The notes beneath the pieces were generated by a model. That model was not told the origin of the DNA. It worked only from the letters and a program-made list of their open reading frames with translations, and searched no databases. From a virus (lineage: Duplodnaviria > Heunggongvirae > Uroviricota > Caudoviricetes), in IMG/VR virus record IMGVR_UViG_2850773344_000006: a stretch of DNA of 35,652 bases, one strand, 5' to 3'. Both the position numbers and the translations under genes were made by a program. Positions 27,278 to 29,888 of the stretch are shown here, in pieces (the first letter of the stretch is position 1; every line of letters begins with the position of its first letter).

Positions 27278-27712
27278 TTAACCCCAACGGCAAATCGAAT
27301 ACACCACCAGCGCCACCGCCATCGCAATTCCTACCGTGGTGAATGCCTCAGGCCAGGTCATTGATTCACCTCCTGCGGTGGTTCCGGTAGCGGCATCCAG
27401 TGAGTTGAGCTCTCTGTCTTTGTCCACAAAAGCCATCTTATTCCCGCCACGAGTGGGGCAAAAAACCTTATCCCAGGAACCGGGGAATACATTCCCGAGA
27501 TCATCGAGAAGAATCACATCGCAATATTCAGCAGGAACTGCATCACTACAGCTTATCCAGCCAGCCAGAGTTACCGGAGAGTTGCCAGCCTTACGCATGG
27601 CCATTTCCACGATTTCAACCATATCTCCTGGTGGAATTTTACAAAGTTGCCCAATACATTTCTGCTGCCTGGCATATTCGAGAATGTGCTCCAGTTTGGT
27701 TCGATTAATCAT
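27278..27712 (-). CDS. Hypothetical prophage protein (144 aa) with C-terminal hydrophobic segment
   Basis: Complete ORF, coupled to upstream gene (ATGA overlap); C-terminus VGIAMAVALVVYSICRWG. Confidence 0.5.
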   Translation of the reverse strand: MINRTKLEHILEYARQQKCIGQLCKIPPGDMVEIVEMAMRKAGNSPVTLAGWISCSDAVPAEYCDVILLDDLGNVFPGSWDKVFCPTRGGNKMAFVDKDRELNSLDAATGTTAGGESMTWPEAFTTVGIAMAVALVVYSICRWG

Positions 27713-28377
27713 TATTTATCTCCCTTAAGCATGGCAGCGCGGCAGGCGTTCCAGCCATCAACATAATCAAACGTATTACTATCGTTTGGCCCGATTTCAT
27801 CCGGCACTATCGGCTCTGGTTGGATAGTGACGTTGGCAAAGGCAGCACGCAAACCGGTTTTAATTTCTTCGATTTCATCAGAGCCAAGCGATGAATCTGA
27901 CAGTGCGTGATGGAATGCGTAAGCCATGTCGTCGTTTACTGCAACCGGCACTGCCGGCGCTGCGTAAAGCGGTGTTATATCTGCCCGAAAATCACATGCT
28001 TTATGCAGTCGTACCCAACGCTCAACTTCCGCTTTGTAAAAATATATAGCAGTGAACGTATTAGATTCCTGGTCAACTTGAGTAAACGTCACCTTCCACG
28101 CTACAGCTACGGCTTTCCATCCATCAGGTTGTCGCATTCGCGGGGCAGCATAAAGCTCATGCATTCCATCAGGCAGCGAGTGACCCACATACTCACCGAA
28201 CCCGTCAATACACATGCCCCCATCTTCAACAATGCATTCCGCTACAGGCTCTGCTTCCAGTGATGCCAGAGCGATAAGAGCCAGTTCACGAATTTCACCG
28301 CCGTCTATATCGTCAATATCATCGCGGCCAGAAATGTTAGCCAGCCATTGCAGTCGCTCTTTGGTAATAGTAGTCAT
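27712..28377 (-). CDS. Hypothetical prophage protein (221 aa, acidic)
   Basis: Complete ORF in an operon-like array; no recognisable motif. Confidence 0.5.
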   Translation of the reverse strand: MTTITKERLQWLANISGRDDIDDIDGGEIRELALIALASLEAEPVAECIVEDGGMCIDGFGEYVGHSLPDGMHELYAAPRMRQPDGWKAVAVAWKVTFTQVDQESNTFTAIYFYKAEVERWVRLHKACDFRADITPLYAAPAVPVAVNDDMAYAFHHALSDSSLGSDEIEEIKTGLRAAFANVTIQPEPIVPDEIGPNDSNTFDYVDGWNACRAAMLKGDK

Positions 28378-28829
28378 GCCGTAGTCCCTTCTTGATATTT
28401 TTCAAACCAGAACACAACCGGGTCAGATTTCATTTCAACCAATCCCATACGAACCAGCGCTTTGCCTTTCCCGGACGCAAGGAATTCACGACGACCATCA
28501 CTGATAATTCGTCGATAATCTTCCAGGCTACTGCAATGCTTGTGCAGATTGCATGGGTGGCATTCTGGTACCATGTTGGATATATCGTCACGTTCCTGGT
28601 GAAGCATATTTCCATCAAAACGAATGACCGGTTTTACATGGTCTGCATGCCACTTTTCGCCAAGTTCGCAGCCGCAATAAGCGCAGCGACCACCGAACTT
28701 CATGCGCAGTTCTGCACGTTGTTTTTTCGTCAGTGCCATATCAGCTTTCCTTATACGGATTAATTTTATTGTGCAGTGTGTTGAATGACGCCCATACCAC
28801 GTCGTTATACAATTCAATAACTGGCTCAA
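28374..28829 (-). CDS. HNH-type nuclease-domain protein (151 aa)
   Basis: CAYCGCEL...WHADHVKPV...ECHPCNLHKH: two Cys pairs flanking an H-D-H core. Confidence 0.6.
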   Translation of the reverse strand: MSQLLNCITTWYGRHSTHCTIKLIRIRKADMALTKKQRAELRMKFGGRCAYCGCELGEKWHADHVKPVIRFDGNMLHQERDDISNMVPECHPCNLHKHCSSLEDYRRIISDGRREFLASGKGKALVRMGLVEMKSDPVVFWFEKYQEGTTA

Positions 28830-29051
28830 TTATTTTTCCGATTATCCAGACAAAAATTTGCGGGGATATCGGTGTCATCAACACGATAAACAGAATGAGA
28901 AACAGGAATTCTGTTGTTCTACTCTTTCGCGGATATTTTTTTCTAAATAATGTAACCATTCATTACCGCCCTTTCGGGCGGTCTCCTGATGATTTGAGGG
29001 TGCAGAAATCCCTCCGGTTAAGGATTAAATTTTTAACAGTGCTAAATTTAA

Positions 29052-29465
29052 TTATTCAGTTCTGGATTTTGTCGCCCTGCGTATCCGCGCTTTCGCGTTA
29101 CGCTCAATCTGTATCAGCTTTTCTATATTTCTCCGCCTTTCCTGTTCCTCCTGGCGCAATAGCCTTACATCATCTGCCAGTCTGGTTTCTCTTTTTGCCA
29201 CAGAGAGCATCCAGTCAAACGGCTCCACAACCGCACCGCAGATTTTACAGCGGACCTGACGCTCTTTTTCGTCAACCCGTACAGAGGCGTGATGGCAATA
29301 TGGTCTTTCCGATGGCTTATAAAGAAAATTAACCTGATTACGAGGGTCATCCTCTTTTATCGGAAATAAAACGATATTGCTTAACTCATCTTCTGGTTTT
29401 ATTTCCATGCTCCTCTCCTTTGATGCGAATGCCAGCGGTAATTGAAGCCTGATAGCTAATTTCAT
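29052..29465 (-). CDS. Hypothetical zinc-ribbon protein (137 aa)
   Basis: CHHASVRVDEKERQVRCKICGAV Cys/His cluster and basic C-terminus. Confidence 0.5.
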   Translation of the reverse strand: MKLAIRLQLPLAFASKERSMEIKPEDELSNIVLFPIKEDDPRNQVNFLYKPSERPYCHHASVRVDEKERQVRCKICGAVVEPFDWMLSVAKRETRLADDVRLLRQEEQERRRNIEKLIQIERNAKARIRRATKSRTE

Positions 29466-29888
29466 TCACAGTATCGCCTCCTGAAAATTACCCTGATAGA
29501 AAGCCAGTACACGCTGCATAGCTTCGCTCTTCCGGCACTCGCGACAGATTATATTCAGGCGCCTGTCGTAGCGGCGTATTTCTCCGTCAGGTAATGACCA
29601 GATAAGGTCCGGATCAACAACAACCGGTTTCCTCACCTTTACTCTCGAGAGTTTTTTGCGGGCGCTTTGCCAGTCCTTGCGAGCCTGTTCAGACGGGAAT
29701 AAGCCGTAGCCAGAATTATATACATCACCACTTGCGACCAGTTCTATGCATAAGCGACCGACAGACGCACGACTGATACCTGTTTCATCGGACAACTGCC
29801 GAATCGTGACCCGACCGTCCTGATGCACGAGTTCCACAATTCGCGTCTTCAGTTCTTCCCGCTGTTCGGGAGTAAAAGGTTTCGCCAT
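29466..29888 (-). CDS. Hypothetical HTH/winged-helix protein (140 aa)
   Basis: RVTIRQLSDETGISRASVGRLCIELV suggests a DNA-binding fold. Confidence 0.45.
   Translation of the reverse strand: MAKPFTPEQREELKTRIVELVHQDGRVTIRQLSDETGISRASVGRLCIELVASGDVYNSGYGLFPSEQARKDWQSARKKLSRVKVRKPVVVDPDLIWSLPDGEIRRYDRRLNIICRECRKSEAMQRVLAFYQGNFQEAIL

Follow-up and report, generated by a model that had tools for sequence, protein, structure and literature searches.

A 35,652-nucleotide (nt) stretch of tailed-phage DNA (IMG/VR record IMGVR_UViG_2850773344_000006, Caudoviricetes; hereafter the window) carries an array of small genes on its minus strand at positions 27278–29888. Seven products are predicted: a homologue of lambda Ren (gene 1), a protein with a zinc ribbon and a long helix (gene 2), a DUF4014 membrane protein (gene 3), an HNH protein (gene 4), an acidic modular protein (gene 5), a DUF551 protein (gene 6) and a membrane peptide of 27 amino acids (aa) encoded by a micro-open reading frame (micro-ORF). 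The prophage that houses it is cryptic and lambda-like, its replication module being of the Rac type, and the array takes up the position that runs from ren to ninB. Its location between a DnaC-like loader and a hok/sok locus bears out a first-pass annotation of the window, which had described small early-region genes there. We consider it likely that this is the accessory stretch of the prophage, composed of independent, interchangeable cassettes and probably silent in the present genome.

Six genes and a micro-ORF between the loader and hok/sok

All five minus-strand open reading frames (ORFs) named in the first-pass annotation are present, and the gene list drawn from them requires revision (Table 1). 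The lengths of 140 and 221 aa stand, while those of 137 and 151 aa describe maximal ORFs and the 144-aa ORF is a frameshift fusion. Gene 2 has its conserved start at M20 (position 29408, with AGGAG ahead), yielding 118 rather than 137 aa, and the conserved start of the HNH gene is M31 (28739), yielding 121 rather than 151 aa. Both corrected starts agree with the RefSeq annotation of two prophages that are 98% identical over the region, L001 (Escherichia coli FDAARGOS_944) and L002 (E. coli VL40). A further gene, DUF4014, had been overlooked where the inflated 151-aa ORF crosses it in a different frame; the supposed five-gene unit thus consists of six genes and the micro-ORF. Stop-start coupling, taken to extend throughout, is seen at DUF4014/HNH (separated by 1 nt), at HNH/gene 5 (an ATGA overlap) and at gene 5/DUF551 (a TAATG overlap), but not between genes 1 and 2, which are 57 nt apart, or between gene 2 and DUF4014, where a 92-nt gap holds hairpins. 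In relatives, the start of the micro-ORF also overlaps the DUF551 stop codon as ATGA. An intrinsic terminator ends the array upstream of hok/sok.

Table 1 Features of the array and of the surrounding window.
Feature	Positions	Strand	Description
First-pass ORF, 140 aa	29466–29888	-	
First-pass ORF, 137 aa	29052–29465	-	
First-pass ORF, 151 aa	28374–28829	-	
First-pass ORF, 221 aa	27712–28377	-	
First-pass ORF, 144 aa	27278–27712	-	
DnaC-like loader	29903–30649	-	Upstream of gene 1
Gene 1	29466–29888	-	140-aa DUF977/Ren-family protein, N-terminal winged helix-turn-helix
Gene 2	29052–29408	-	118 aa, predicted zinc ribbon then one long basic helix; phrog_1621 (E 9.5e-56)
Spacer, gene 2/DUF4014	28960–29051	-	Two short hairpins (sequence reading)
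Gene 3	28741–28959	-	72-aa DUF4014 protein, predicted single membrane span
Gene 4	28374–28739	-	121-aa stand-alone HNH (HNN-type) putative endonuclease, [CxxC]x2 zinc site
Gene 5	27712–28377	-	221-aa acidic modular protein, shuffled Ead/YfdT/DUF551-associated modules
Gene 6	27278–27712	-	DUF551 gene, frameshifted; 144-aa ORF, ancestral form 121 aa
11-nt deletion junction	27416/27415	-	Missing GGCGTTGAAGT (DNA alignment)
Micro-ORF	27278–27361	-	27 aa, hydrophobic, MTWPEAFTTVGIAMAVALVVYSICRWG; own GGAGG Shine-Dalgarno
Terminator hairpin	27241–27273	bidirectional	AAAAACCCCGG...CCGGGGTTTTT; 13-pair stem, 7 GC pairs (terminator scan)
199-aa ORF	28733–29332	+	phrog_20982 (E 4.7e-32), match confined to the stretch antisense to DUF4014
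Hok/Gef-family gene (first-pass "hokD")	26748–27072	-	Full-length Rfam sok antitoxin RNA match, 118 bits
IS1	25491–26257		Between phrog_1813 gene and NinB-like DUF1367 gene; not in L001, L002
IS3-family element, 1331 bp	31397–32727		Interrupts ydaU-type gene
Second IS3-family element	32947–34195		Further interrupts ydaU-type gene
IS600	34431 to window end (35652)		Further interrupts ydaU-type gene
Four phage-borne tRNA genes, then tyrosine-recombinase gene	19636–21665	-	Gly, Thr, Arg, CAT-anticodon
Metal ABC transporter, four genes	10506–13955	+	ZnuA-like binding protein, ATPase, two ABC-3 permeases
IpaH-family effector	2941–4596	+	551 aa

The array members are real genes rather than chance ORFs, because each belongs to a Pfam or PHROG family and its alleles show purifying selection. 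Only an HNH-like motif had been thought recognisable, whereas DUF977, DUF4014, HNH and DUF551 all exceed their Pfam cut-offs and every gene has a PHROG; scans with NCBIfam and PADLOC gave no family for genes 2, 3, 5 and 6. Window alleles were compared with the distinct full-length alleles from 158 related viral loci, gathered by similarity to HNH or DUF4014, so that counts from them illustrate a pattern and are not an unbiased census. The summed ratios of nonsynonymous to synonymous differences (pN/pS) are 0.32, 0.11, 0.25, 0.11 and 0.18 for genes 1–5 and 0.10 for the micro-ORF. The sums lack phylogenetic independence, but their direction is clear.

An ORF of 199 aa on the plus strand was rejected as a gene. 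Stop codons interrupt it in 5 of 42 alleles, compared with none of 42 in the DUF4014 frame, and we treat it, with the other plus-strand ORFs, as a shadow. The PHROG that it matches was probably assembled from gene calls on the wrong strand.

Predicted products of the array

Gene 1 is, by sequence comparison, a homologue of lambda Ren and occupies lambda's ren position. It matches DUF977 (PF06163, E 1.1e-33, 116.5 bits against a gathering cut-off of 22.1) as well as winged helix-turn-helix (HTH) families, and aligns over its full length (residues 1–139) with phrog_142, "Ren-like exclusion protein" (E 2.7e-44), the PHROG to which residues 1–95 of lambda Ren also align (E 1.6e-41). The two proteins have a C-terminal motif in common, ECRxSxAMxRVLAxY, and the last 20 residues of gene 1 are 60% identical (12/20) to the Ren C terminus (BLASTP E 3e-7). 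An AGGAGG Shine-Dalgarno precedes the ATG of gene 1, which lies 14 nt past the stop codon of the DnaC-like loader. This slot, which immediately follows the gene for the replication loader and precedes one of NinB/Orf type, is the one found in lambda P-ren-ninB, and a gene 1 homologue directly follows the O gene in phage vB_EcoS-640R1. The lambda nin genes are described as non-essential (PMC11879866), and like the ren and nin genes of lambda those of the array would be non-essential and delayed-early.

There are also differences. Gene 1 has 140 aa with an inserted stretch, compared with 96 aa for lambda Ren, and exceeds the Pfam DUF977 cut-off, which lambda Ren does not. While nothing separates ren from ninB in lambda, this prophage has five further genes, the micro-ORF, the terminator and hok/sok in between, and its replication module is of the YdaU/YdaV type rather than O/P. 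A PDB sequence search with gene 1 returned nothing useful. Ren has been described as "likely involved in DNA replication", and two-hybrid data place the Rex proteins in contact with O and Ren (bioRxiv 10.1101/2021.04.19.439022). By analogy, the gene 1 product would act with replication proteins, against Rex-type exclusion. A link from gene 1 to the published "blocker" of retron-Sen2 through K-12 YdaW was ruled out, as YdaW is a DUF1627 protein and the alignment is a weak, generic HTH match. The label "LygF", carried by gene 1 homologues in some phage records, led to no functional information in the papers found.

The gene 2 family was found in Enterobacterales only (148 matches). C38, H40, C54 and C57 are invariant and form a putative C-x-H...C-x-x-C zinc knuckle, while the C-terminal helix, NIEKLIQIERNAKARIRR, is nearly unchanged between genera. 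In the AlphaFold2 model (predicted local distance difference test score, pLDDT, 76), hairpins at residues 43–61 are followed by a helix of about 55 residues (63–117). The fold search gave no match at E < 0.5, its sole resemblance being a generic TFIIB-type zinc ribbon; no relative was found in the PDB by fold or sequence profile or in BFVD by fold. A zinc-ribbon protein whose helix is nearly invariant from Escherichia to Serratia and Yersinia could cooperate with the Ren homologue. In the spacer that follows gene 2, the second hairpin (ACCGCCC-GAAA-GGGCGGT) ends 5 nt ahead of the DUF4014 start codon and could hide the DUF4014 ribosome-binding site; the spacer has no Rfam match and was not called by the terminator scan.

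Two products are predicted to be small membrane proteins. The gene 3 product covers positions 1–71 of the 72 in PF13198 (E 4.3e-25, 88.4 bits, gathering cut-off 23.2) and matches phrog_1832 (E 1.2e-43). Its mean Kyte-Doolittle hydropathy reaches 2.30 over residues 19–37, with a basic N terminus ahead. No stop codon occurs in the frame in 42 alleles, and the gene is annotated by the Prokaryotic Genome Annotation Pipeline (PGAP) in the sister prophages. The micro-ORF product has a mean hydropathy of 2.46 over residues 10–24, as predicted for a single-pass membrane peptide, and its pN/pS of 0.10 was obtained over 31 distinct alleles. Its DNA occurs in 1308 of 5426 complete E. coli genomes, about a quarter, and is unannotated in the RefSeq rows inspected; a few records call it (P0080, 79 contigs). 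The DUF4014 protein and the 27-aa peptide could act in exclusion.

Gene 4 passes PF01844 marginally (22.8 bits, gathering cut-off 21.4) and matches phrog_2118 (E 3.5e-55), into which all 51 aligned members of its family fall. Six residues (C19, C22, D33, C63, N64 and K67) do not vary across these 51 proteins, and three more (H34, N55 and C60) show at least 90% conservation. Gene 4 itself retains the catalytic Asp-His pair (D33, H34), the structural Asn and the metal-ligand Asn/His (both N55 and N64 are present) and four zinc cysteines (C19, C22, C60, C63). At E ≤ 1e-10 the family spans 359 representative clusters, of which the top listed are mostly stand-alone proteins of 115–150 aa, and its conserved C-terminal region ends PVVFYFE. 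Among solved chains, 4h9d ("HNH endonuclease") comes closest, at E 4.7e-9 over the core only, and HNH domains of the IscB/Cas9 type come next; beyond the HNH core, the PDB sequence search found nothing useful.

Phage and prophage HNH proteins of 121–130 aa, several of them with a [CxxC]2 zinc site, are nicking enzymes with short recognition sites (PMC3592412). By analogy, short-site nicking is the most likely biochemical activity of gene 4, whose product would cleave one or both DNA strands at sites that are short or defined by structure. The nicking HNH proteins of the N.phiGamma group (the 4h9d chain), HK97 gp74 and gene 4 are alike in their length of 112–130 aa, their beta-beta-alpha-metal core and their [CxxC]x2 zinc site. 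The likeness of gene 4 to the small nicking enzymes is nonetheless restricted to the catalytic core, and there is none to gp74. Unlike the N.phiGamma-group and gp74 proteins, the gene 4 family has its own conserved C-terminal region, and unlike their genes, which adjoin cos and terminase, gene 4 does not.

The HNH protein may alternatively be a routine phage DNA-processing enzyme that cuts junctions or branches, as lambda Rap/NinG and T4 endonuclease VII do, or that assists terminase in the manner of HK97 gp74; the array would then be part of the replication and recombination machinery. We regard this as possible though doubtful; it concerns one gene, and it overlaps with the accessory-cassette interpretation rather than competing with it. 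The gene sits in the nin region beside the NinB-like and YbcO nuclease genes, and gene 4 gives weak matches to "endonuclease VII" PHROGs, among them phrog_1035 (E 2.6e-12), which 49 of the 51 family members match; the nicking activity of phage HNH proteins of similar size (PMC3592412) is consistent with such a role. The HNH core aligns with lambda NinG (E 2e-4), but it alone does so, and assignment to NinG/Rap (PF05766) was rejected at 16.4 bits against a cut-off of 25.4. Membership of the gp74 family was likewise rejected, with no BLASTP alignment and with gp74 in phrog_2323 rather than phrog_2118. Four viral loci have the HNH gene 1.5–2 kb upstream of the terminase small subunit, yet several genes intervene, the terminase of the sister prophages is about 8 kb away, and in none of the loci examined are the two directly adjacent. 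The HNH gene is also missing from many otherwise similar phages, which argues against a core function, and a routine nuclease would leave the other five genes unexplained.

The gene 5 product is acidic (isoelectric point 4.4) and modular. It has no Pfam match, PF13935 (Ead/Ea22) included, and matches parts of phrog_60, 12449, 5117, 660 and 17148. At least five modules recur in varied combinations in 3310 partial homologues; modules of this type are joined by EAEP, LYAAP and VPD linkers and are often fused to DUF551 (PF04448) or PF13935. The first 44 residues resemble K-12 YfdT (E 4e-4). Its AlphaFold2 model (pLDDT 51) is unusable and was kept out of the fold search, and PDB sequence searches with gene 5 and with the intact DUF551 protein returned nothing useful.

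Gene 6 has lost 11 nt that are present in every IMG/VR locus bearing the gene, as seen from split tblastn matches. The deletion removes the conserved C terminus, ...HWMPLPEPPQEVNQ, and shifts the frame so that it reads into the downstream 27-aa ORF. Comparison of translations with L001 and L002 reveals that the 144-aa ORF consists of DUF551 residues 1–99, an out-of-frame stretch and the micro-ORF. The window protein scores 32.9 bits against PF04448 (cut-off 22) over profile positions 1–46 of 68, compared with 69.9 bits over all 68 positions for an intact relative. The source names listed for the 144-aa form (29 contigs) are confined to Shigella flexneri 5a M90T and 5b 8401, while the intact form is found on at least 1000 contigs.

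YfdS of prophage CPS-53 may serve as the only, and indirect, experimental handle on DUF551. In the K-12 yfdS-yfdT pair, as here, a DUF551 protein adjoins a small protein with an "MTT.T...ALxSLExEP" N-terminal module through a stop/start overlap in a prophage early region, and no other relative arrangement has an experimental phenotype. Initiation at oriC is reduced when yfdQRS or yfdQRT is present in multicopy, and mutants in yfdS show H2O2 sensitivity (PMC4776307). However, yfdQRST sits in the early-left region by the excisionase gene torI, unlike the array, and its effect requires YfdQ together with the DnaA-binding HD-domain protein YfdR; no gene for either was seen near the array. YfdS gives no BLASTP alignment with intact gene 6, and the likeness to YfdT is limited to residues 1–44 of gene 5.

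A second parallel is offered by the Ea22/exo-xis genes of lambda and Stx phages, whose products are also mosaics of modules and have variable acidic domains at their C termini. DUF551 is present in one Ea22 variant (PMC10834534), and the exo-xis region of phage ArgO145 and Stx2a phages holds homologues of the HNH gene, DUF4014 and the gene 5/6 modules. In contrast to the exo-xis genes, the array belongs to the early-right operon. Gene 5 has neither a PF13935 match nor similarity to the solved Ea22 domain, and the pro-lysogenic effect has been shown for Ea22 itself only. Apart from the Ren homologue and the HNH protein, the array products would be small membrane or protein-binding modulators.

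Exchange of cassettes at gene boundaries

The related loci show that members of the array assort independently. Among the 80 loci found through HNH, some carry the whole array and some carry HNH with none of its array neighbours. In many, the Ren-like gene, gene 2, DUF4014, HNH and the micro-ORF are kept while other genes replace genes 5 and 6, so that the micro-ORF is retained downstream even there. Where the neighbours are missing, the HNH gene lies either just before xis and int or, in the four loci mentioned above, upstream of the terminase small subunit, always within runs of Ead/DUF551-type small genes with 1–4-nt overlaps. HNH follows downstream in 36 of the 76 DUF4014-found loci with enough downstream sequence and is not downstream in the other 40. 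In L154, L157 and L164 (about 2500–3970), a gene 2 homologue follows DUF4014, the inverse of the order in the window. Complete E. coli genomes give the same picture, with the whole array in 2 of 5426 and parts of it in 4098 of 5426. Relatives therefore lack the co-occurrence and fixed order expected of a multi-gene system and instead show independent assortment, inserted cassettes and inverted order. By these sequence comparisons, the array would be a set of interchangeable, independent cassettes and not one system.

The junctions reveal how the cassettes are exchanged. After DUF4014, the Shine-Dalgarno/stop/start string AAGGAAAGCTGATATG is identical whether HNH, a gene beginning "MTTIT..." or another cassette follows, and the arrangements DUF4014-HNH-MTTIT gene and DUF4014-MTTIT gene both occur with this string. 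A junction shared irrespective of the gene that follows points to exchange exactly at gene boundaries, with short shared sequences. The genes would thus be dispensable cassettes rather than subunits of a single machine, swapped at boundaries with short conserved junctions such as AAGGAAAGCTGATATG or the shared "MTTIT..." starts. At the same conserved junction in L105 (3221–3260), the gene after DUF4014 begins MTTITTITTITRE, in which the 9-nt unit ACCACTATT stands three times in tandem; the tandem copies hint at slippage or recombination at junction sequences.

Whether the HNH protein itself drives this exchange must be considered. It could be a selfish mobile cassette, a free-standing homing endonuclease recently spread in enterobacterial phages whose cuts promote cassette exchange. 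The ORF is present or absent precisely between DUF4014 and MTTIT-gene flanks, its catalytic motif is intact, and at least three distinct phage regions contain it. In DUF4014-selected loci the HNH protein is 97–99% identical, compared with 86–100% for DUF4014 and 45–100% for gene 1, and its synonymous divergence (pS 0.10) is lower than that of any other widespread cassette (0.19 in DUF4014, 0.24 in the micro-ORF). However, non-nuclease cassettes (DUF4014, gene 2 and the MTTIT genes) show the same boundary-exact exchange. The protein has just 121 aa and no separate DNA-recognition domain, no target site was identified, and strong purifying selection (pN/pS 0.11) over a 359-cluster family fits a function useful to the phage. 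We consider homing unlikely.

A probably stranded accessory stretch

In an intact phage, transcription from the early-right promoter would reach the array once it had passed the replication genes. No minus-strand sigma-70-like site was found within the array, so it probably relied on that promoter, which lies ahead of the replication genes; because there is no such internal site and a terminator lies at its end, it appears to form one transcription unit. Farther upstream of the loader lies the C-terminal part of a YdaU/O-like initiator, and three insertion sequence (IS) elements are located between the array and its native promoter region. The 1331-bp IS3-family element has a size and ORFs that we take to be those of IS2. 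The array had been said to have escaped IS disruption in a degraded region. No IS lies within 27278–29888, but the last gene is frameshifted and the three IS elements cut the upstream replication and regulatory region, severing the native promoter side, so the array was not spared decay. For these two reasons the array here would be a stranded remnant and most likely silent cargo. Of the sister genomes, one has ISEc52 between genes 1 and 2 and another has two extra genes there.

The genome that carries the array is of the S. flexneri serotype 5 type. Downstream of the array follow hok and the sok RNA, a phrog_1813 gene, IS1, a NinB/Orf-like DUF1367 gene, YbcO, a Q-like DUF1133 gene and the four tRNA genes. 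The long 70-aa hok ORF, leader included, has a pN/pS of 0.89. The YdaU/O-like initiator gene is in pieces (30656–35652), and two incomplete fragments of it are annotated even in the sister E. coli prophages. A 534-aa tyrosine-recombinase gene lies 115 nt past the 3′ end of tRNA-Gly, where similarity to the sister prophages ends, which suggests that a tRNA gene of the prophage itself served as the insertion site of an element; a search of the window for another copy of the tRNA-Gly 3′ end, which would mark an island boundary, found none. Elsewhere in the window, the IpaH-family effector combines a type III secretion leucine-rich repeat domain with a C-terminal NEL E3-ligase domain. The metal ABC transporter genes, presumably similar to sitABCD, are flanked by IS elements and prophage tail-fibre remnants, and many IS elements occur throughout the window.

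Several points weigh against an array of independent cassettes now silent. IS-borne or cryptic promoters could still drive it. Genes 1–5 are intact, and identical products of genes 1–3 and 5 are each found on about 1000 contigs named S. flexneri or S. sonnei (the exact HNH protein sequence on 45); such wide retention in Shigella could mean a benefit to the host rather than recent clonal descent. The selective gathering of the compared loci is a further caution. In addition, the functions proposed for individual genes are read from family membership, and none of genes 2–6 has a close homologue characterised by experiment; a full-text search with the RefSeq protein accessions found no paper.

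The first-pass annotation had pointed to anti-defence, superinfection-exclusion or host-takeover functions; that the array, or several of its genes, is such a module and still working in Shigella we find improbable. Gene 1 does belong to the family of lambda Ren, a protein linked to escape from Rex exclusion; the PHROG label of the family names exclusion, and two-hybrid contacts of Ren and O with the Rex proteins have been reported (bioRxiv 10.1101/2021.04.19.439022). The small products and variable early-region genes resemble known counter-defence genes, two predicted membrane peptides have a form common among exclusion proteins, all genes are under purifying selection, and genes 1–5 are intact and widespread in Shigella. 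However, no gene fits a known defence system: PADLOC-DB gave no meaningful match for five of the six genes, and the match of gene 4 to PtuB (E 3.6e-7) is confined to the nuclease core, with no PtuA ATPase partner nearby. The retron-blocker match concerns K-12 YdaW, a DUF1627 protein unrelated to gene 1. The independent assortment of the genes, the severed promoter region and the frameshifted gene 6 likewise argue against a working module. Nor does the whole set consist of routine nin functions, the outcome that would have refuted the first-pass proposal, as only gene 1 (Ren family) and, loosely, the HNH gene are so assigned. Anti-defence roles are possible for individual genes, with a family-level hint for the Ren homologue only. 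There is a slim chance that at least one widespread cassette, such as the zinc-ribbon protein, the membrane peptides or the HNH protein, holds a specific role in phage–phage or phage–host conflict.

The accessory stretch of cassettes is thus familiar in kind. All of the genes are already on record in Pfam, PHROGs and RefSeq annotation, the arrangement is a known type of lambda-like accessory mosaic, and the sequence is common in Shigella. The outcome is mainly a correction of the annotation, in its gene count, two start codons, a frameshift and an overlooked membrane gene, and the segment, an ordinary mosaic of a decaying prophage, can be dropped as a candidate new system. It does provide a clear example of lambda-like phage genes exchanged exactly at boundaries with short junction sequences in common. 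What interest remains attaches to two very common and unstudied items: the zinc-ribbon protein with its near-invariant helix, and the 27-aa membrane micro-ORF, which goes unrecorded by routine annotation in about 1300 E. coli genomes.

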